64,000 bases of DNA, taken from an uncultured Phycisphaerales bacterium. GTDB taxonomy: Bacteria > Planctomycetota > Phycisphaerae > Tepidisphaerales > Tepidisphaeraceae. Made by a program: the position numbers and the translations under genes. This document shows, piece after piece, positions 16,687 to 28,911 of the stretch. The stretch covers positions 928,001 to 992,000 of the forward strand of contig CAWJPJ010000007.1 of the NCBI GenBank assembly GCA_963844715.1, given 5' to 3'. The notes beneath the pieces are model-generated. The model had not been told where the DNA came from. It made no database searches and saw only the letters and a program-made list of their open reading frames with translations. Position 1 is the first letter of the stretch. Each line of letters begins with the position of its first letter.

Positions 16687-19600
16687 TTGCGCGAGGAAGA
16701 CGATATTTCCATCCCGAATATTGGCCTGCCCCTCGATTTTAGCCGCTATTACTATTCCGGCTCGACCACCGACGTTGGCTTCGGCGCCGGCTGGACCGAT
16801 AGTTACAGCGACACGATGGTCACGCAGGAAAATGGCGACGTCCTTTGGACCGATTCCCAGGGTGATCAGCACACCTTCACGCCCGCCACCGGCGGTGGTT
16901 TTACCGACCCCGCGACCATCTTTGGAACTCTCTCCCTGGTGGACGGCCAGTACATCTACCGCGACACTGACGGAACCGAGCCGCATCTTCAATGCCTCGA
17001 CGGGCCAGCTTGTCGAAATCGAAGACGCCAACGGCAACGCCCTCGATATCACGTACAACGAAGATGGAACGCTCGCCTCCGTCTACGATGCGGCCGATCC
17101 CTCGCGCAGCCTGACCTTCACCGACACCGGCGGACACATTACCGCCATCACCGACTTCACCGGCAGGATCTGGAAATACTGTTATCAAACGGCCGTTAAT
17201 CCCGTGACTGATCAAACTGTGTATCTGTTGACGTCGGTCCACACTCCGTGCGACTCCAACACGCCGGCGCAAACCACTAACTATGGTTATGACACATCCG
17301 TTTTCGGCTACAGTTCCGCCGCCGGCAGCATCAATGCGTCTTCGCCTCTCTTCGGGCTGCTCAGCTCGGTTACAAATGTCTCCGATGGCGCATCAGTTCA
17401 AATCAGTTACTACCCCGACGGGCGAGCGTTTACCGTTACCCTGCCCGACGGCGGAATCGAATCGGTCTTCTATGACACGTATCACGATACATCCACCTAC
17501 GTCAATGAACTGGGACAGCCGACGCTTGTCGAAATGAATTCCGCTGGCGATGTCGTCAAGCAGATCAACCCCGACCTGACTCAGATCGATTCCACCTACA
17601 ACGCCAACGGCGAGCTTACCTCCGAGACCAACGCGATGGGTCAGACCGAAACGTTTACCTACGACTCCAGCGGCAACGTCACCTCATACACGGCCTTCGA
17701 CGGCGTCACGACGGATGCGACCTACAACTCGTTTGCCGAGCCGACGCAGGTCACCCTCCCCGGCGGACGCGTCACGACTTACACCTACGATTCTCATGGC
17801 AATCTTCTCTCCATGACGGATGCCGCCGGCGACGAAACGACCTACACTTATGTCCCCACCGACGGCACGGATCACACCAACGGCCTGGTTGAAACCGTCA
17901 CAGCGCCCAACGGCAACGTCGAAGGCGCAACCGCCTCCGACTTTACCACCACATTCACCTACAACACCGCCGGGCAGACGGTTACCGCCGCAAACGGCTT
18001 GGACCAAACCGTCACCAACACCTACGACTCCGCCGGCGATCTGACCAGCATGACCGACGCGATGGGCAACACGACTTCATATACCTACAACCTGTTGGGT
18101 CAGCTGCTGTCCACCACTTCCCCCGACCCCGGAGTCACAGGCGAGACCCAGCCGGTCTCCAATATCGCCTACGACCTAGCGGACAATTCAACCACCACCA
18201 CGGACCCCAATGGCAACATCACGCAGACTTTCTTCAATGGCGATAACCAGGTCATCAAGGTCGTCAACCCCGACGGGTCATTCATCAGCTACGCGTACGG
18301 CGCCGCCAGCAATCTCGTCGCGATGACCGATTCGCGCGGGAACGCGACGAAGTATGTTTACAACTCCATGGGCCAACTAGTCGAGACGTTGAATCCCGAC
18401 GGCACCTCCACGACCCAGACGTACAACGCTGCCGGCCAGGTGACCAGTTCCACCGATGCCGACGGGAACACCACCTACTACTCGTATCAATCCAACGGCT
18501 GGCTGGCGTCGGTTACTGATCCGAACGGCAATATCACGACCTACGGCTACGATTCCGTCGGCGACGTCACCAGCGTAACCACTCCCTTAGGTACGACGAC
18601 GTACACGTACGACGACCTCGGCCGCGTCACTCAGTCCGAAGATCCCACCGGTCTTGTAACCGAGACTACTTACGACGCCGACGGCAATGTCACCCAGCAA
18701 ACTCAGTACAACGTCTCCGACCCAAGCGACACGCACGCGACCACCACGGTCTACGATGTGCTGGATCGCCCGATCGAAGTGACCGACCCGGCGGGGAATC
18801 ATACCGACACTTCCTACAACGCCGATGGAGAAGTCATCAGCACCACCGACGCCGCGGGGGCGACGACCAATTACGCCTATGACGATGACGGGCGCTTGAT
18901 CTCCACCACCGGTCCATCCCCCGACGGCGGTACCACGCCGGGCCCGGTTACCAGCTATCTCTACGATGCCGACGGGAACCAAACGGAGGTAACTGACCCC
19001 CTCGGAAACACGACGGCGTATATCTACAACAACATGAACGAACTGATTTCGGAAACCGATCCCGCCCCCAGCACCGGCGCGGCCGCCCCGGTTACGACGT
19101 ATCAGTACAACACGGATGGCGAGCAGACCGCCATCACCGATCCGGACGGGAACACCACCTTCTACCAGTTTAACTTCATGGGCGAGCAGGTCTCGGAACT
19201 GAACGCCGCGGGATCGAAGTGGACCTGGCAGTATGATCCCAACGGCAATCTCATCTCCGCCACGGACGCCGACGGCCGCACCGTCGACTACACCTATAAC
19301 TCCCTCGGCGAGGTGACCAGCGAAAACTGGGTCGGGGGCGACTACACCATCAACTACACATACAACAGCCTCGGCCAGCTCACCCAGGTTACCGATCCGG
19401 ACTCCACGTACAATTACACGTACAACAGCGTCGGCCAGGTAATCCACGCGAACAACTCCGGCACGCCTGGCGTCCCCACAACCACGTTGAATACCAGCTA
19501 CGACGGTTTCAATAACCTCGCCAGCCTGAGCGCCCTGATCGGCTCAACCACCGACTTTACAAATTCATATAGTTACGATTCACTGGCCGATATGACCCAG

Positions 19601-21514
19601 GTCGCCCAATCCGGCTCCGCCGTCACCTCGAAGCAGGCGAACTTCACGTACAACGCTTTGGGCCAAATCACATCCGAGCAATTATCCGCGTCATCCGCGG
19701 TGGCAAACGCTTCTTTCGGTTATAACGACGCAGATCAACTTACTTCACTTACGTACACTCGCGCCAGCGATTCCTCCACGATCAATTCCTACGGCTTGAC
19801 CTACAACTCCGACGGACAGATCACCGCGGAGACCAACTCCGACGGCACGATCGACTATACCTACGACCACGACGGCCAGCTGACGGGCGCCAGCGGCTCG
19901 GGCCTGCCGTCGAGCAACTCCTATTCCTACGACGCGAACGGCGACCGCACGTCCACCGGCTCCGCCGCCGACACCACCGGCACGAATAACGAACTGACCA
20001 GCGACGGGACATACGACTATACCTACGATGCCGATGGCAATCCGATTACGCAGACGACCATCGCCACGGGCGCGACGGAGAACTTCACCTGGGATTACCG
20101 CAACCGCCTGACGGGTATCGTATTTAAAAATTCCTCGGGCGTAGTTACCGAGGAAATCTCGTACACTTACGACGCGTTCAACCAGCGGATCAGCCAGACG
20201 GTGAAAAACGGCTCGGGTACGGTGACGTTCGCCGAGAACTACGTGTATGACTCGGCGGGCGACTTGGTGATGACCCTGGACGCCTCCGGCAGCGTCACGG
20301 ATACCTTCCTCAATGGACCCACGGGGCAAACCCTTGCCGCCGACGCCGGCAGCGGCAATGTGACCTGGCTCCTGGCCGACCAGCAGGGATCGGTCCGGGA
20401 TGTCATCAATGACTCTGGCGCGGTTGTCGACCACATCGTCTACGACTCCTACGGCAACATCGTGAGCCAGAGCAGCTCCGCGAACCAGCCGAGATTCGCG
20501 TACGCGGGAATGCAATTGGATCAAGCCACCGGCTTGTACTACGACCACGCGCGCTATTACGATTCGTCAACCGGAACATTCATCAACCAGGATCCGACCG
20601 GGTTTGGCGGAGGGACGACGGATTTGTATGACTATGTCGGCAACGACCCGGTCAATTTCGACGATCCGACGGGGACGTTTTCATACCGGCTTCAGATGGT
20701 GGAAGAACAGGCCGCGCAGGGAGATCACGATGTGCTCACGCAGCTGCAAAACCTGATGCTTGTTCCACCCACGCAAAGTCCGGCCTGCTTCTCGGGGGAT
20801 GACAACGGCGCGACGACAGGTTCGAACGGAGGCACGGTATTCTCGAACGCGCAACAGGGCGATTCATGGTGGTCGAACTTCTGGAATGCCGGGACTAACC
20901 CCAATTCTTATGGGGAGGCGTCGAACGTAACGCAGCCGAATTCCATTGTGTATACGTCAGCGGCACTTCGCGCGGCGGGAGTGGTTTTGGTAACATACGG
21001 CACGGGGGGCATCGCGGCGGAGGTGTATGATGCGTACGTTAGTGCCGAGGAGGCGGGAATCGCCGCAAGTACAGTGGCAAGCGCTGTGGGAAATGCGGCG
21101 ATACAAGCCACTTCCGGACAGCCCTTCTCTTGGACTTCGTTTGTAGCGAGTACAGTTACGGGCGCTGGTGCTGGAGTGGCTGCAAACGTGGTAGGCAACA
21201 TGCTTGCCGCAGAGAGTGAAGGCGCTGCCGGAAGCACGCCGGTAGGCCGTTCGGGTTCTCCCCTCGGGTCGGTTCAGGGGAATGCTGACGCCACAATCGG
21301 CGGTCGTACCTTTAGCGGCCACGCACTTGACGGAATGCAGGCCGACGGTATTCCCCCGTCCGTTGCCGAGAACACGATCCAAAACGGCTCGTCGATGGTG
21401 GGTAAGAATCCTGGGACGACCGCGTTTTATGATCCGGCTAATAACGTCACCGTCATAACTAACTCAACTACGGGCAAGGTGGTTACTGTCTCCCGTGGTC
21501 TGATCAAGCAGTAG
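16687..21514 (+). CDS. Second (orphan) Rhs cassette: partial DUF6531, YD repeats, Rhs core and RNase-like C-terminal toxin; one frameshift near 16980
   Basis: Starts mid-DUF6531 (REEDDISIPNIGLPLDFSRYY) with no ATG or RBS, and is homologous to 12240-15641. Core ends DDPTG at about 20674. Tip: TPVGRSGSPL...TIGGRTFSGHALDGMQADGIPPSVAENTIQNG...FYDPANNVTVITNSTTGKVVTV. Confidence 0.85.
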
Positions 21515-21528
21515 AAGGCAGGTCCGTC

Positions 21529-21912
21529 ATGGCTGAGGATTGGAAGAAGGAATACGACCAACGTCAATATCGGTTGATGGCTGACCAATTGCAGCGGTTT
21601 GAAGAAGGTCAACTCGGTCTTGTCTCTCTGATCGGCAGCCTAAAGTCTTTGCTTTCAGTTCTTGAAGCAACAGATGAAGCGTGGAAAGACGACTTCCGAA
21701 GTGAGTGGGGAACTTTGGAGGTGGCATATGCCATGATGCTTGACCAGAAGGGAGACGGCCTCGTGCCAAACGAGCAGGCGGCGCTTAATGATCTCGCCAA
21801 CCGTGCAGATATCCGTCAAGCAGTCCGGAACATGCAGCGGCTTGTGCAGGAGCGCATTGACACGACGGCTGGCGCGGAAACTGACGCCGGGGACGGTGCG
21901 ATTGCCGGCTGA
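21529..21912 (+). CDS. Putative cytoplasmic immunity protein, copy 1
   Basis: 127 aa acidic, helical-looking ORF 14 nt after the toxin stop; paralogous to the next ORF. Confidence 0.7.
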   Translation: MAEDWKKEYDQRQYRLMADQLQRFEEGQLGLVSLIGSLKSLLSVLEATDEAWKDDFRSEWGTLEVAYAMMLDQKGDGLVPNEQAALNDLANRADIRQAVRNMQRLVQERIDTTAGAETDAGDGAIAG

Positions 21913-21934
21913 AAGCGACTAAAGGTGGGTCGTC

Positions 21935-22318
21935 ATGGCTGAGGATTGGAAGGCGGAATACGATCAACGCCAGTATCGGTTGATGGCCGACCAGTTGCAG
22001 GGATATGAAGAAGGCAAGTTAAACCTCGCCTCTTTGGTCAGCAGGTTGGAAGCGTTGCTCTCGGCTCTAGAGGCACCCGATAAAGCGTGGAAAAATGACT
22101 TCTGGAGCAAGTGGGGAACCTTGGAGACGGTGTACGCGGTAGCGCTTGACCGCAACGAACAAGGTCTCGCGCCGGATGCCCAAGCGACGATCAATGATCC
22201 CTCTCACCGGGCGCTCATCAACGAGGCAGTCCAGAATCTCCGGCGGCTCGTACAGGACCGCATCGACACGACGGCCGGCGCGGAAACGGACGCCGAGGAT
22301 GGCGCGACCGCCGGCTGA
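21935..22318 (+). CDS. Putative immunity protein, copy 2 (tandem paralogue)
   Basis: Same length and collinear (MAEDWKxEYDQRQYRLMADQLQ...WGTLE...RIDTTAGAETDA). Confidence 0.7.
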   Translation: MAEDWKAEYDQRQYRLMADQLQGYEEGKLNLASLVSRLEALLSALEAPDKAWKNDFWSKWGTLETVYAVALDRNEQGLAPDAQATINDPSHRALINEAVQNLRRLVQDRIDTTAGAETDAEDGATAG

Positions 22319-22680
22319 AAGCCACCCATTGCAAACCCGGTAGGTTGACGGATCGCGCTAACTTCCCGCCCTGTCGGGAGTTGCCGGCGTCGTTGCCGCC
22401 GCGCAAGGTGTAAACACCTTGCCTCATCAGGTCACAGGTTGCGCCAGATCATTGTGGGACAGAGACTTACAAAAAGCGCACCTTGGTTCCTTTTACCTTG
22501 CCGTCTGATGTTTGTATGACCTTCTGCCCCCAGGTCAGCGCTGCAAGTGCCGGAATTCGCTGCAAATACCGACAAAGCTCATACATCCCTTTTATCTTGT
22601 ATTCCATGAGCAAACTTCTCCTGGGTTAGATTCTCCGGGAGTGTCGAGACCCGTTGGTCCCTTTTTGCGGGAGGTTTGCC

Positions 22681-23828
22681 ATGGTATTCGTTGGATTGGA
22701 TACGCATCATGAAACGTCGACCTGTTGCGTGCTGGATGATCGAGGCCAGCGACTGGAGGGTCGGACGATCAAGGGTTCTTGGACGGAAACGGCACGGTAT
22801 CTTCAGGCGCTGCAACAGCGTGATGGTCGGCCGATGGCAGTCTGCTACGAGGCATCGTGCGGGTACGGAGCGTTGCACGATCACCTGCGGACATTCTGCC
22901 AGCAGGTGGTGGTGGCGCATCCTGGCCGGGTGCGATTGATCAGCCGATCCAAGCGGAAGAATGATCGGGTTGACGCCCAGAAGCTGGCCAAGCTGTTGTA
23001 TCTGGACGAGGTTCCGCAGGTGCATGTTCCATCGGCCGAGGTTCGTTCGTGGCGGGAGCTGATCGAGCTGCGTCGTCGCCAGGTGCAGACGCGCACTCGG
23101 GTGCAGAGCCGGATCCGCGCGTTGCTGCGGACGTACAACGTGTGCATTCCCAAGCAGGGAAAGGAACCCAATCGCCCGTCTCGGAGGTGAAGTCTGCCGT
23201 CGTTGCGAGTGAAGCGTGCGAGCCGTTTAAGATTCTGTGGACGGATCGGGGCCACCGCTGGCTCAAGTTGCTGCAATGGCCAACGCCGGCGGTGGCGTTG
23301 CGGTGCGAATTGTTGGTCGATGAGTTGGAGCAGACGGAACGCGCCATCAAGCGGGTGACGGCGGAGTTGGACAAGATGGCGGCCGGAAACGCCGGCGTGC
23401 AATTGCTGTGCACGATCCCCGGCGTGGGATGCCGGACCGCCGAGGCGGTGGTGGCGTATCTGGACGATCCAGATCGTTTTGCCCGATCCAACCGGGTGGG
23501 ATCGTACGCGGGTCTGGTGCCGTGCCAGGACAGTTCCGGGGGCACCGATCGACTGGGCCATATCACCAAGGAGGGCCCGGCGACGATGCGCTGGCTGCTG
23601 GTGCAATCGGCCTGGCAGGTGGTGCGGCGCGAGCCGTTCATGCGGGCGTACTTTCATCGCGTGGCCGGCGGGCAGAAGGAAAATCACAAGAAGGCGCTGA
23701 TCGCCACGGCGCATAAGCTGCTGCGTTGCATGCATTCGATGCTGCGAACGGGCGAGGTGTGGAATCCGCCGAAGGACGATGCCGCGAACGAGGCGAAGTC
23801 CGCCGCGACGGAAGAGAAGAGCGGCTAA
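22681..23828 (+). CDS. IS110-family DEDD recombinase/transposase (1-nt frameshift near 23160-23185)
   Basis: GGGAGG RBS; motifs VGLDTH, YEAS and KNDRVDA (DEDD); C-terminal LCTIPGVG...YAGLVPCQDSSG...HITKEG...KKALIATAHKLLR. Confidence 0.92.
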
Positions 23829-23849
23829 AGGAAAAAGATGGACCCTTGT

Positions 23850-24035
23850 AGGCATCGGTAAGCGCCGATGATCGAGATGGGCACGGGATTGATAACCGGA
23901 CTCCGCGGCAAGGCATGGGACCATACCCAGGATCCCGATACCTTGAATGGAGCCGGTTCGGATCACGAAGAGTGGCACGCCGTCGATAAGTGTTTTGACG
24001 GATGATGCCGGATAGATGCGTGGAACATCCCGAGC
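23850..24035 (+). ncRNA. Predicted IS110 bridge RNA (5' hairpin, target-binding loop, donor-binding loop), copy 1
   Basis: Stems AACCGG-A-CTCC/GGAG-CCGGTT and CACG/CGTG close two internal loops. These contain GGCAAGGCA and TACCTTG (target match) and GAGTGGCA and ATAGATG (donor match). Folded by eye; ends approximate. Confidence 0.7.
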
Positions 24036-24577
24036 CTGAATCTCGTCCCCGTCTTGACACGGTTTGCTCATAGATGCCGTCTGATGTTTGTATGACCTTC
24101 TGCCCCCAGGTCAGCGCTGCAAGTGCCGGAATTCGCTGCAAATACCGACAAAGCTCATACATCCCTTTTATCTTGTATTCCATGAGCAAACTTCTCCTGG
24201 GTTAGATTCTCCGGGAGTGTCGAGACCCGTTGGTCCCTTTTTGCGGGAGGTTTGCCATGGTATTCGTTGGATTGGATACGCATCATGAAACGTCGACCTG
24301 TTGCGTGCTGGATGATCGAGGCCAGCGACTGGAGGGTCGGACGATCAAGGGTTCTTGGACGGAAACGGCACGGTATCTTCAGGCGCTGCAACAGCGTGAT
24401 GGTCGGCCGATGGCAGTCTGCTACGAGGCATCGTGCGGGTACGGAGCGTTGCACGATGTCGCGGGTGCGCCAAAACCGGCCATCAATGGGCGCTCGAAAA
24501 CCGGCCAGTGTTGTGACGCTTCGTATACCTCATCCGTTCAGTTCCATGCAACTTTCTGTTGAGTTATTGGCCCCGCA

Positions 24578-25455
24578 TCAGGACGCCTGATCGGCAGGCA
24601 CCCCAGCACCAGAAGATACTGGCTTTCTGCCACGGTGTCTTCCGGAGGGGAGGCCCTTCATCGTCGGCGGTACTCCGCCGTCCTTTTGAATTTGCCTTTG
24701 TGGAAGGCTTCGCCTCCACGGCCTCCCCGTGCCGCCGTGGCGCAGGCGATAGCTTTTGCCGGTGATGTTGATGATGGTGGCGTGCTGCAGGAAGCGGTCG
24801 AGGATCGCCGTGGCGGCCGGCACGTCGCCGATCAGTTTGGCCCAGTCTTCCAGCGGCCGGTTGCTGGTCATCATCGTCGAGCGGTTCTCATGGCGGCGCA
24901 TGATGATCTCCAGCAGGCATTCGCCGGAGCGACGCGGAAGTTGCTTCATGCCCATGTCGTCGATGATGAGCAGGTCGGGCTTGAGATAACGATTCAGCGT
25001 TTTGTCCTGCTGGCCGAGTTCCTCGTCGCCGAGGAAGTCGCGGGCCAGGTCGAAGATGGAGCGGTACAGCACCAGGAATCCGGCTTTGATCGCCTGATGC
25101 CCGATGGCCTGGACCAGGAACGTTTTGCCGACGCCGGGTGGGCCCAGCAGCAAGCACATCGGCTTTCTCGCGGATGAACTGACAACCGGCCAGGTCGTGG
25201 ATCTGCTTGCGCTTGATCGACGGGTTGAAGGAGAAGTCGAACTCGTCGAGGTTTTTGACTTCGCCGAACAGGCGGCCTTGACGCGGCGGCTACCAATCGG
25301 CTGGACCGCACGTTCAGTTCATCCTGAAGAATCAGTTCCAGAAACTCGGCGTGATCGAGCCGATTGCCGGCTGCCTCGCTCAGGCGGACTTCAAGGCTCT
25401 GGGCCAGGCCCGAAAGCCGAAGCTGTTTGAGCGTCTGCAACAATGAAGGTCTCAT
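24578..25455 (-). CDS. istB: IS21 helper ATPase IstB (frameshifted)
   Basis: LKQLRLSG; Walker A GPPGVGKT; Walker B LLIIDDMG; TSNRP...ILDRFLQH...GKSYR. Start overlaps the istA stop. Confidence 0.92.
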
Positions 25456-26994
25456 GGGATGGACTCCTGTGAAGGTGGTTGTTGGGTAATGGCCTGTCGC
25501 ACGAACTGCCCGTAATCGCCCAGGTCACGGATGATCGGATGTTCCTGGATGAACTCGAAGTTCTGCTGAATGGCGGGCGGATTCTGTTGTTCGATGAGTT
25601 GCCGCAATGAACGCAGGTGATACGCCCCATGGCCCTGGGCGACTTGGCAGGCCTGCTCGATGACGCGGCGGGAATGCTTGTTCGTCAGGGACAACAGCCC
25701 CATGAGCACGCGCACGCCTTCGATGCCGCGATTCTGGAGCATCGACTGCGCCCACTGCGTGGCGTGCGGGCCGATGGATTCGACCCGGCGCAGCAGCCAG
25801 GCCGTTCCGCGTTCGATGCCGCTGATCTTCTCCGGCAGGATGTGGGCATCCAGCGTGGAGAAGGTTCCCGGCGGACGCTGCACATGCACGGCGATCGGCC
25901 GCATCTTCTGATCCAGCAGTCGGACCAGTCCGGCCATCCCAGCGCGCCCAGAGCTGCTGGCCCAAAAACTCCGGCGGCACCGAGTAGTACGCGCCCTTGA
26001 TCTCCACGTGCCCATCCCGATGCACGCTCCGCAGCGCTTCTGGAAACAGATCGAACCGGGCCGCCGGCAACGGCAACAGCGCCGGCTTCTCCGCCTGCTC
26101 GAAGACTTCCTTCACCTGCCGGCGCGTCGTGCCATGGATGCGCGTGTCGGCGACGGTCGCTTCCCAGGTCTGCAGATGCTGGTTCTGCTCGGCCAGGAAG
26201 TGAAGGTCCGTCCCTTGAGGGCGTTGCCCTTCACATAGCCGATGCCCCGTTCGATCTTCCCCTTGTGCCGCGGCGTGTACGGCTTGGTCGGCAGGATGGC
26301 GATGCCGTAATGCTCGGCAAACGAGCGGACCTTGGGACACAGCTCCGGGTCGAACCAGTCCGCCCGCCTCACCGCCGCCCGGAGATTGTCGATCACCAGC
26401 GTCCTCGGCACGCCGCCGAAGTGCGCGAAGGCATTCTCCAGGCAACGCAGAAAGTCATCGGTGGTCTGACGATGCACCGCCTCGGCGTACCCCTTGCGGC
26501 TGTGGGACAGCACGATGCGGAAGACCCAGGTGCTCTTCCGTTTGCCATCCGGCACCGACGATGGGCGCGCCCCGGCCAAAGTCCACCTGCGCCTCGGCCC
26601 CCGGCTCGCATTCCATCCGCCGGAACGGCGCCGGCGCCGCCGCAGGTCAACTTCTTGACCAGCCGGCGCACGCTGTAATAGCTGCCGGCATAACCGTGGT
26701 CGGAGCAGAGGTCCTGATAAATCCGCTGGGCGGTCAGCCCCATGCTCCAGCTTCTGAAGAATCACTTCACGCCAGGGCGCTGGCGGCGCGTGACCAACCC
26801 GGTGGGCGACGCCTCTCCGAGCCGAGGGGGGCGCGCTGGCCGGTTTTGAATCTTCCCTGCGCCGCCAGCCGAAGATGGCGTCCGACCGTCTCCCGGTGAA
26901 CGCCAAGTTGCCGGGCGATGTGCCGGTTGGACCAGCCATTGCGTGCAAGTGCCAGAATTGCTTGTACTTCCGCCATCTTGAGTTGATTCGCCAT
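25452..26994 (-). CDS. istA: IS21 transposase IstA (frameshifted)
   Basis: HTH GWSNRHIARQLGVHRETV; FAHFGGVPRTLVIDNLRA; PRHKGKIER; YSVP. Confidence 0.9.
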
Positions 26995-28089
26995 CGTACC
27001 GTCGTCTCCCGGCGAGAGCCGGAAGCCAACGGTAATGAACAAATCTCCTGTGCCTCAAAATGGCCGGTTTTGGCGCGCCCCTCAGCTGGCCGGTTTGTGC
27101 GCGCCCGCTGACAGCACGATCACCTGCGGACATTCTGCCAGCAGGTGGTGGTAGCGCATCCTGGCCGGGTGCGATTGATCAGCCGATCCAAGCGGAAGAA
27201 TGATCGGGTTGACGCCCAGAAGCTGGCCAAGCTGTTGTATCTGGACGAGGTTCCGCAGGTGCATGTTCCATCGGCCGAGGTTCGTTCGTGGCGGGAGCTG
27301 ATCGAGCTGCGTCGTCGCCAGGTGCAGACGCGCACTCGGGTGCAGAGTCGGATCCGCGCGTTGTTGCGGACGTACAACGTGTGCATTCCCAAGCGGGGAA
27401 GAAGATTACCGCTCGACCGTCCGGAGGTGAAGCCTGCCGTCGTGGCGAGTGAAGCGTACGAGCCGTTTAAGATTCTGTGGACGGATCGGGGCCATCGCTG
27501 GCTCAAGTTGCTGCAATGGCCAACGCCGGCGGTGGCGTTGCGGTGCGAATTGCTGGTGGAGGAACTGGAGCAGACGGAACGGGCCATCAAGCGGGTGACG
27601 GCGGAGTTGGACAAGATGGCGGCCGGAAACGCCGGCGTGCAATTGTTGTGCACGATCCCTGGGGTGGGCTGTCGGACCGCCGAGGCGGTGGTGGCATATC
27701 TGGACGATCCAGATCGTTTTGCCCGATCCAACCGGGTGGGATCGTACGCGGGCCTGGTGCCGTGCCAGGACAGTTCCGGGGGCACCGATCGACTGGGCCA
27801 TATCACCAAGGAGGGCCCGGCGACGATGCGCTGGCTGCTGGTGCAATCGGCCTGGCAGGTGGTGCGGCGCGAGCCGTTCATGCGGGCATACTTCAATCGC
27901 GTGGCCGGCGGGCAGAAGGAAAATCATAAGAAAGCTTTGATAGCCACGGCGCATAAGCTGCTGCGTTGCATGCATTCGATGCTGCGAACGGGCGAGGTGT
28001 GGAATCCGCTGAAGGACGATGCCGCGAACGAGGCGAAGTCCGCCGCGACGGAAGAGAAGAGCGGCTAAAGGAAAAAGATGGACCCTTGT

Positions 28090-28276
28090 AGGCGTCGGTA
28101 AGCGCCGATGATCGAGATGGGCACGGGATTGATAACCGGACTCCGCGGCAAGGCATGGGACCATACCCAGGATCCCGATACCTTGAATGGAGCCGGTTCG
28201 GATCACGAAGAGTGGCACGCCGTCGATGAAGTGTTTTGACGGATGATGCCGGATAGATGCGTGGAACATCCCGAGC
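28090..28276 (+). ncRNA. Predicted IS110 bridge RNA, copy 2
   Basis: Same sequence as 23850-24035 except one stem A>G change and a 1-nt loop insertion. Confidence 0.68.
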
Positions 28277-28319
28277 CTGAATCTCGTCCCCGTCTTGACA
28301 CGGTTTGCTCATAGATGCC

Positions 28320-28911
28320 CTGCGTTGAGAACAGAATTTCCCCGATTGTCACCGATTCTTTTTTACCCATGTCGATGTGCGACGAAGGGTCTGATTCATC
28401 CGCGAATGAAAAACTGATGCCGACTTTGCGGTACACGCCTAGGACTTGATCGGTATGGATTGGGCCGAAGTAGCGGCTATCGAAGCTGCGTACGGCGGCG
28501 GAGCCGACGAGCAGTTCATCGGCGGCGAGTCTGCGCGGCTGACCAGTGCGGCAGCGGCCGACCAGCGGAATCGAAAGCGGCAATGGGACCTACACGAAAG
28601 CCGTTGACGCGCAGCTCGCCGTCCAGCGTCGAGACAAAGTCGCCGCCGGCGGCCAGCACGTGCTTAAGCAGGATCAGATTCGTCGGCTCACCCCGCAGAC
28701 GCGTATAGGAATAGGCGCTGGCGGGCAGCGCAAACGCGACAATACTGCCGCGCTGAATACGACCGCCATGGTAAAGATAGAAGCCAATTGGAACACTCGG
28801 CGTGCGGTTGTAAATCACCAGCGGCGGATGCGGCAGCGACGCGCTGGCAATCAGCGCAGCGATAACGCCTGCGATGACCCGCATACGGCGGAGGCCTCGA
28901 TCAATTCTCAT
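28320..28911 (-). CDS. traF: TraF-like conjugative S26 peptidase (frameshifted)
   Basis: IYNRTPSVPIGFY...LLKHVLAAGGDFV, then in another frame SFDSRYFGPI...VLGV; N-terminal TM helix. Confidence 0.8.

Follow-up and report, generated by a model that had tools for sequence, protein, structure and literature searches.

Insertion sequences (ISs) of the IS1111 group, in the IS110 family, are the closest described systems to the locus presented here. SeekRNAs were demonstrated experimentally for four members of this group, namely ISEc11, ISPa11, ISKpn4 and ISPst6 (Siddiquee et al. 2024, PMC11187229), and for 93% of IS1111-group elements a bridge RNA was predicted, located in the right end (Durrant et al. 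2024, PMC11208160). In the portions of these reports used here, the complement of the top strand is placed 5′ of the complement of the bottom strand in IS1111 RNAs, the reverse of the order in IS110-type RNAs (PMC11187229), and the donor-binding nucleotides of IS1111 RNAs are often found outside a simple internal loop (PMC11208160). The DNA analysed (the window) is a stretch of 64,000 nucleotides from an uncultured Phycisphaerales bacterium (GenBank assembly GCA_963844715.1, contig CAWJPJ010000007.1, positions 928,001 to 992,000 of the forward strand); positions are those of the window, and features lie on its plus strand unless stated otherwise. It is very probable that the segment 23873–24045, together with a twin near 28113–28286, encodes the bridge RNA (seekRNA) of an IS110-family element of the IS1111 type, 1479 bp long. 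A preliminary description of this region had recognized the outline of an IS1111-type bridge RNA, but its element boundaries, its target and the donor half of the RNA were wrong, and the system is less novel than had been assumed.

The locus belongs to a kind of system already described and adds one more member to it, the likeness to published IS1111 RNAs being judged from text descriptions; since both the mechanism and the right-end location of these RNAs have been published, a further case is not surprising. As in the elements with demonstrated seekRNAs, the RNA lies in a long non-coding region downstream of the recombinase gene, the guides have the same order with matches that overlap at the insertion point, and the element has subterminal repeats and a right extension of 3 bp; apart from the shared dinucleotide, the target is not duplicated. 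Differences concern the left extension (3–4 nt after the core here versus 7 or 6 bp reported), the recombinase, which is ~30% identical to any named IS and carries a ~23-residue insertion in its variable region, and the type of evidence, sequence analysis alone in the present case. The RNAs predicted for the IS1111 group (Durrant et al. 2024) share the right-end location, the long subterminal repeats and donor nucleotides outside a simple loop, as far as the published text describes them. With IS621 (PMC11208160; 8wt6–8wt9), the features described in common are a bispecific RNA having target and donor modules with one guide per strand that includes the core dinucleotide, and a recombinase with DEDD/RuvC-like and Tnp domains. 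In contrast, the IS621 RNA is described in the left end with a reversed guide order and a CT core, whereas both an RNA in the right end and an NG core (TG in this element) are seen here; furthermore, guides lie on either side of a hairpin in the present donor module, for which no conserved closing stem was detected.

Relatives were collected from three sources: 33 loci came from species genomes, others from 14 of 141 genomes belonging to the same order (several copies or many in some of them), and 80 were metagenome loci (49–57% protein identity). An alignment of 60 right ends made with MAFFT provided an RNAalifold consensus, which was extended by an outer stem and then tested. The structured core thus defined (23873–24045, matched over 23886–24024 by a covariance model) comprises five helices. 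The outer stem is made of P0b (23873–23877/24041–24045), weakly paired with 58.6% of cells and double changes in 4/5 pairs, and P0a (23884–23889/24027–24032; 79.8%, 7/8 pairs). Inside it are found P1 (23895–23905/23948–23957; 97.8%, 9/10 pairs), P2 (23916–23920/23933–23937; 94.3%, 3/5 pairs) and P3 (23973–23981/24001–24010; 94.4%, 5/8 pairs). Overall, 87.8% of cells pair, as compared with 77.4% in shuffles and 31.6–50.7% with partners slid, and double changes occur in 28/36 pairs. For four of five measures the observed value was reached in 0/500 shuffles, and for the remaining one, further pair types, in 5/500.

A covariance model (R1) built from 53 relatives, with this element excluded, matches the window only at 23886–24024 and 28126–28265 (72.2 bits, E 3.1e-19). 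The second match falls in a second copy of the element, and a third copy on another contig of the same genome scores 72.3 bits; matches in a distant clade are weak (30.5 bits for G124, 22.3 for G125 and 9.9 for L049). Such a fold and model from homologous right ends had been advocated in the preliminary description, and together they bear out its main proposal that the right non-coding end encodes a bridge-RNA-like molecule with a guide–hairpin–guide layout. The stem closing its first loop exists at the P1 coordinates given above, but had been placed at 23894–23904/23949–23958; the hairpin inside this loop, followed by TACCTTG at 23939–23945, is as described. The simple stem-closed second internal loop did not survive comparison, not being conserved in relatives: its CACG/CGTG stem (23965–23968/24019–24022) pairs in the minimum-energy fold of this sequence, but RNAalifold did not predict it for the 60 relatives. 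Upstream of the core is found a 5′ hairpin, CAUCGG/CCGAUG (23853–23870), where position 23854 gives A–U or G–U depending on the copy. Within the RNA region, differences among copies and RNA-library contigs fall in this hairpin (A–U to G–U) and the P3 loop, and the two already noticed between copies (A/G at 23854 and 1 nt in the hairpin loop near 23987) are indeed structure-neutral. A scan of 22300–28500 against Rfam 15 at E up to 1 gave no match, to a bridge-RNA family or otherwise, and is uninformative.

Guide assignments were examined across relatives after dropping elements without a recognizable left end or with too little flank. The distant clade (G124, G125 and L049) and near-duplicates (L003, L085, L093 and L119) were left out of the counts; L083, L120, L128, L136 and L144, which have large insertions, were left out of A3, and L041, L070, L071, L074, L080 and L097 also out of A4. 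The 5′ target guide, GGCAAGG-CA (GGCAAGGCA, 23907–23915), occupies the 8–9 nt preceding P2 and is complementary to the top strand over the core and right target. Over an 8-nt window it matches the right flank, with the core G included, at ≥6/8 in 48/60 relatives (54 distinct guides; mean 6.45 versus 3.39 for cross pairs, 0/10000 permutations). In this element the match to the real right flank TG-CCCTGCG (site 1, see below) is 6/8, and the 7/9 match reported earlier between GGCAAGGCA and the reverse complement of TG+CCCTGCG is correct. The 3′ target guide, UACCU-UG (23939–23945), which is the 7 nt immediately preceding GAAUGG, has the sense of the left target and core. It matches the left flank plus core at ≥6/7 in 46/55 relatives (48 distinct guides; mean 5.96 versus 2.96 for cross pairs, 0/10000 permutations). 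For this element, the matches were counted by hand, as the 4-nt left extension mis-registered the automated run; they amount to 7/7 for host site 2 (22494–22500) and 6/7 for the occupied site 1 (22593–22599, TATCTTG).

The donor half of the RNA is organized around P3. Directly 3′ of this helix, the 3′ (left-)donor guide AUAGA-UG (24012–24018) is identical to the right terminus and core (24070–24076), as had been noticed. Among 73 relatives treated with a simple parser, 60/68 parsed pairs are identical over the last six letters, distributed as TAGATG (24), TGGATG (22), TGGACG (10), TAGACG (2) and TAGAAG (2). The eight misses include four parser errors, and the other four (L079, L089, L093 and L148) differ only at core position 1. 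Covariation in relatives therefore supports the earlier view that the target loop and the 3′ donor guide read the flanks and right terminus of the element itself; the guide/target covariation test proposed at that time is strongly positive for both target guides.

The situation is different on the 5′ side of P3, where GAGTGGCA (23970–23977) had been taken as the 5′ donor guide. Most of this segment is a stem strand, and it had been matched to host DNA: positions 23973–23977 (UGGCA) of GAGUGGCA constitute the 5′ strand of P3 and pair with 24006–24010 in a conserved and covarying helix. A weak candidate for the right-donor guide is GAAGAG (23967–23972), directly 5′ of P3, which pairs 4/6 with GTATTC (22599–22604). 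Across relatives, the 6 nt 5′ of P3 compared with the left-end top strand (core, extension and C) give a mean of 3.88/6, versus 1.08–2.94 in eight slid registers (0/5000 permutations). One position shows Watson–Crick covariation with the base preceding the left repeat in 47/51 cases (A–T 30, T–A 17, other 4), with a mutual information of 0.87 (0/500 permutations). A search by eye for this guide in the P1–P3 linker led to inconsistent results, and a weak signal emerged from the mutual-information and register tests only. Such a weak left-end guide 5′ of P3 fits the description of donor-binding nucleotides outside a simple internal loop in IS1111 RNAs (PMC11208160, in the part cited). A candidate closing stem of the donor module, CCGA/TTGG, is nearly invariant on both sides, so that no covariation can be read from it. 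Taken together, the fold, its conservation and the covariation of three guides, and weakly of a fourth, with the flanks and ends of ~50 differently targeted relatives are observed; guide matches exceed chance only when tested across relatives in this way.

Instead of being a guide RNA, the right-end structure could act at the level of DNA or RNA in recombinase binding, mRNA stability or termination, with loop/flank matches reflecting shared ancestry within shared repeats. Many relatives are interrelated, some lie in repeated host sequences (G125), and the hint of expression comes from contigs that carry no strand, which all suit such a reading. It is nevertheless very unlikely, since 48 and 54 distinct guides follow their own flanks at two separate loop positions and in the correct antiparallel sense, and since the 3′ donor guide carries the same single-base changes as the right terminus (A/G, and T/C/A at the core). 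In addition, published experiments on the IS110 family describe the RNA as required and programmable (PMC11187229 and PMC11208160, in the parts cited).

IS copy 1 spans 22598–24076, that is 1479 bp with the TG core counted at both ends (22598–22599 and 24075–24076). Its right end was set from three right junctions. The right subterminal inverted repeat GTTTGCTCATAG (24062–24073) is followed by A and the TG core, and the right terminus ..CTTGAC..GGCTTGCTCAT(A/G)GA + NG is found in 73/89 oriented loci examined. The left end was set from a family rule, from the start of homology with the third copy and from an empty-site contig. As for the rule, 72/73 relatives have an inverted copy of the right subterminal part upstream of the gene, typically preceded by 3 nt and NG, as in TG-AAA-CTATGAAGCAAGCC; the left end thus consists of the core, 3–4 nt and the inverted copy of the right subterminal repeat. 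In this element the order is TG (22598–22599), the extension TATT (22600–22603) and the left subterminal inverted repeat CCATGAGCAAAC (22604–22615), 11/12 to the reverse complement of 24062–24073; at the equivalent position relatives have CTATGA(A)GCAAGCC. Homology with the third copy (L003) starts exactly at the end derived from the rule, with none left of 22599. A contig of run X19 carries 22520–22599 (74/80 identical) followed by unrelated CCTTCACCC.. where the IS would sit. These three observations, and the repeated host element left of 22505, define the 1479-bp element. A first register for the left ends of relatives, with the core 7–9 nt before the repeat, was dropped; the 3′ target guides of L041/L055 and L042 fit the core plus 3 nt.

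With these ends, the non-coding regions measure 81 nt on the left (22600–22680) and 248 nt on the right (23829–24076), the longer one following the recombinase gene. On the right the extension is A+TG (3 bp), and on the left TATT, as against 3 nt in most relatives, which makes 5–6 bp with the shared core, a count that depends on core placement. The circle junction expected for the 1479-bp element is CATAGA-TG-TATTCCATGAG. IS copy 2 extends over 24174–28317, where it is interrupted by a decayed IS21-type element, and its RNA gene is intact (model match 28126–28265).

The preliminary description had instead seen a 1576-bp element starting at 22499/22501, present in tandem within a single target TTTTACCT-TG-CCCTGCG, with a circle junction CATAGA-TG-CCGTCTG read by GAGTGGCA and ATAGATG. 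The repeat period of the array is in fact 1576 bp, 22499–22798 being identical to 24075–24374 with TGCC common to all three borders; TACCTTG matches 22494–22500 at 7/7, and CACG/CGTG pairs in the single-sequence fold. Such an element is nonetheless barely credible. The inverted repeat at 22604–22615 would lie ~100 bp inside its left end, whereas 72/73 relatives place this repeat at their true ends; the third copy shares nothing left of 22599, the X19 contig continues from 22520–22599 into non-IS sequence, and a repeated host element makes up the flank as far as 22505. Moreover, UGGCA is a stem strand, in a helix with 94% of cells paired and compensatory changes in 5/8 pairs. The left end is thus at 22598, on which the third copy and the X19 contig agree, and not at 22499.

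The 1576-bp period is explained by two neighbouring copies of the host target. Host site 2, CCTTTTACCT-TG-CC (22489–22502), is a copy of the preferred target motif without an insertion, and a repeated host element terminates in it. Host site 1, CCCTTTTATCT-TG + CCCTGCG, is occupied, and is reconstituted by joining 22590–22599 to 28318 onward. Between them lies segment A, 97 bp of host DNA (22501–22597), with an identical second copy at 24077–24173. The DNA left of 22505 is a repeated host element, copies of which, here, in a same-genus genome and in an unpublished genome (G062, on which alone nothing rests), end in ..GGTTCCTTTTACCTTGCC. The motif CCTTTTACCTTGCC occurs in the genome as three exact and three one-mismatch copies, and the right flank of the third IS copy belongs to the same host repeat. 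Comparison of segment A with genome G138, of the same genus, gives no significant BLAST similarity beyond 22505; a local alignment reaches further, with a 15-nt block at the same spacing, which is no more than suggestive. Thus, the target claimed earlier, TTTTACCT-TG-CCCTGCG, fuses the left half of host site 2 (22489–22502) with the right half of host site 1, and the claimed donor CATAGA-TG-CCGTCTG consists of the right end followed by host DNA from the right half of site 2, and is not a circle junction.

Most likely, the apparent tandem is an arrangement of [97 bp host DNA + IS] × 2 resulting from an exchange that involved a second use of host site 2, which in its left half agrees with the 3′ target guide at 7/7. 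IS copies 1 and 2 are 100% identical over nt 1–500, 84% in the variable region and 94–96% over nt 700–1200, where copy 2 is closer to the third copy (98–99% identity). Such a mosaic would be expected from unequal homologous recombination, with one IS at site 1 and a further copy in site 2; alternatively, a recombinase-mediated exchange between the right junction and site 2 might have been followed by gene conversion. In both scenarios, CATAGA-TG-CCGTCTG represents a true right junction, located at host site 2. That the [host + IS] × 2 arrangement was left behind naturally by guided recombination at a second target site, 99 bp away, can be entertained only tentatively, as a part of the relaxed-recognition reading presented below.

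The same arrangement might be an assembly artefact in which strains with the IS at site 1 or at site 2 were collapsed. In its favour, the assembly is metagenome-derived (85% completeness, 4% contamination), the identity of the two IS copies changes in mosaic fashion, from 100% over nt 1–500 to 94–97% over nt 600–1200, and several variants occur in DNA run X1. This explanation is unlikely, as there are only 8 contigs for 4.55 Mb and the IS21-type insertion inside copy 2 is resolved, which argues for reads longer than the repeat. An artefact would moreover leave CATAGA-TG-CCGTCTG a real right junction at host site 2, and the conclusions on the RNA would be unaffected.

The left flank of the third copy (..GGACTCAACT-AG) is outside the host repeat and is a poor guide match, which suggests an adjacent rearrangement; a direct repeat of ~125 nt surrounds this copy (L003 35–160 and 1940–2070). 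In another relative, four copies (L046, L057, L062 and L065; G125) lie inside a palindromic repeat with 13-bp inverted ends, TTCTTGGCGCTCT/AGAGCGCCAAGAA. This repeat resembles repetitive extragenic palindromes (REPs) or miniature inverted-repeat transposable elements (MITEs), such target sites being known for other members of the family.

A CA/TG core rather than CT had been proposed for this element. TG is correct here, but the rule across the clade is NG, and not CT as in IS621: in right junctions the second core base is G in 73/73 cases, with T, C, A or G as the first base. In some elements (L008, L089/L093 and L148), the 5′ target guide and the donor guide specify different first core bases, and the two junctions then differ; L079 also shows a disagreement at core position 1. 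In L008, the left junction is AG and the right junction CG, the 5′ target guide specifying AG and the donor guide CG. Recognition in this clade might accordingly be relaxed, with only the G fixed, target and donor cores free at position 1, and the left end read mainly via its subterminal repeat, by the protein or otherwise; this reading is doubtful. Its corollary, held with the same reserve, is that the left-end guide of 4–6 nt would be vestigial, leaving effectively three programmable guides and not four. If true, relaxed recognition would imply a more permissive target choice in this clade than in IS621.

The recombinase gene (22681–23828) is frameshifted at ~23160–23190, in its variable region. 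The two open reading frame (ORF) pieces match the Pfam domains PF01548 (DEDD_Tnp_IS110, E 6.3e-21) and PF02371 (Transposase_20, E 1e-23). In the cited portions of the literature, IS1111-group features include a GL-P----S(t)G motif in the C-terminal domain (PMC11187229), subterminal inverted repeats of ~11–13 bp (PMC11187229 and PMC11208160) and recombinases of typically 330–350 aa (PMC11187229). The DEDD and PF02371 domains, the subterminal repeats, the long downstream non-coding region and the motif, seen as GLVPCQDSSG in the translation, are all present in this element. The gene is longer than this range, which is typical rather than strict, having ~382 codons with the insertion of ~23 residues in the variable region; the closest relatives have 340–374 aa. 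The proposal of an IS1111-type element with its RNA downstream of the recombinase is thus upheld by the longer non-coding region at the right end, the repeats and the motif. The nearest named IS is the ISHvo10 family (31.6% identity). Among solved structures, the best sequence match is the ISCro4 transposase (PDB 9t56; E 5.9e-12), a distant similarity in the C-terminal domain, the N-terminal domain not being significantly aligned; with IS621, only the C-terminal domain aligns by sequence (E 3.1e-8).

Several points weigh against a functional guide RNA gene at this locus. All three recombinase copies are broken, copies 1 and 3 by a frameshift in the variable region and copy 2 by the IS21-type insertion. 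The programmable recombinase orthologue announced earlier is therefore not intact here, and no intact recombinase for this element was found in the assembly (85% complete), so that the system may be dead in this genome. Since the sequences are related and not independent, significance is overstated by the permutation figures. For the 5′ target guide, matches to the three right flanks observed amount to 6/8, 4/8 and 5/8 (hand counts, with CC-T in all), and the left flank of the third copy is only 4/7 to the 3′ guide. The right-donor guide is weak, with 4/6 here and 3.9/6 on average, and the left end is almost invariant in the clade, leaving little covariation power there. RNA-library contigs give no information on strand, ends or abundance, and some may stem from contaminating DNA; a scan of 22400–24500 returned 0 sigma-70 promoter or intrinsic terminator consensus sites. 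The RNA genes of this assembly are intact although all three recombinase genes are broken, and relatives are intact and multicopy (2 copies at 99.9% identity in G122, 12 in G124 and 4 in G125).

Contigs from three metatranscriptome runs, belonging to three studies, cover 23741–24082, and one of 194 nt aligns to 23855–24045, nearly coincident with the predicted RNA; they are a weak hint of expression. A junction promoter is known for this family according to the cited part of PMC11187229. A TTGACA sequence is found at 24054–24059, and (C)TTGAC is conserved with a constant spacing to the right end, its presence in 73/73 relatives being by selection since it belonged to the right-end search pattern; it may be the –35 box of a circle-junction promoter. 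A junction promoter combining TTGACA with a –10 box in the left end was sought by eye, and none was convincing.

The RNA folds as an outer stem P0 around two modules. The first is the internal loop closed by P1, where the 5′ strand GGCAAGG-CA and the 3′ strand UACCU-UG are parted by hairpin P2; the second is the conserved hairpin P3, with AUAGA-UG on its 3′ side and, on its 5′ side, the short and imperfect GAAGAG, presumably complementary to the first bases of the left end. By analogy with IS621 and ISEc11, an RNA-bound DEDD recombinase would pair both loops with the circular IS junction and a host motif ..TTTTACCT-TG-CCTT.., and strands would then be exchanged at the NG dinucleotide. Transcription as a separate RNA, recombinase binding and catalysis are inferred.

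RNA-guided IS110/IS1111 recombinases are under development as genome-editing tools that make no double-strand breaks. To this field the locus and its relatives bring a covariation-supported fold for a little-studied subfamily found in Planctomycetota and in soil or peat metagenomes, ~50 natural guide/target pairs showing the guide lengths and registers in use, and evidence that the core is NG, its first base not necessarily being the same in target and donor. The corrected anatomy of the locus also illustrates that boundary calls, and hence the deduction of donor guides, can go astray when copies lie in tandem and a target site has a duplicate nearby.

Further observations concern the variable region of the recombinase and the surroundings of the element. 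A segment of ~30 nt in this region (23160–23195, 27399–27435 and L003 835–865) differs wholly in sequence and length (33, 34 and 26 nt) between copies, and breaks the frame in two of three copies otherwise 92–100% identical; at least two further length variants of this segment occur in DNA run X1. The IS21-type element inside IS copy 2 (24458–27113) carries istA/istB on the minus strand, both split by frameshifts. Its domains are IstB, rve and the Mu-transposase C-terminal domain, its flanks show a 7-bp duplication (GCACGAT) and multiple repeats of the GGCCGGTTTTGGCGCGCCC type are present at its termini. Another recombinase gene of the IS110 family, distinct from that of the element (38% identity) and with an open frame of 395 aa, is located ~7 kb from the third copy (G000:C6:10322–11086, minus strand).

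Upstream of the element, 16721–22505 comprises a gene for an RHS-repeat protein (1597 aa), two paralogous 127-aa ORFs 71% identical to each other, the first of which was scanned and has no Pfam match, and the ~180-nt repeated host element. The latter ends in the IS target motif, and the same repeat is found near the third IS copy on contig C6; the IS thus seems to target a sequence linked to polymorphic-toxin cassettes. Finally, when the IS is removed, a frame on the minus strand is open from an ATG near 28372 through segment A (33 codons) to a stop near 22470, as judged by eye.

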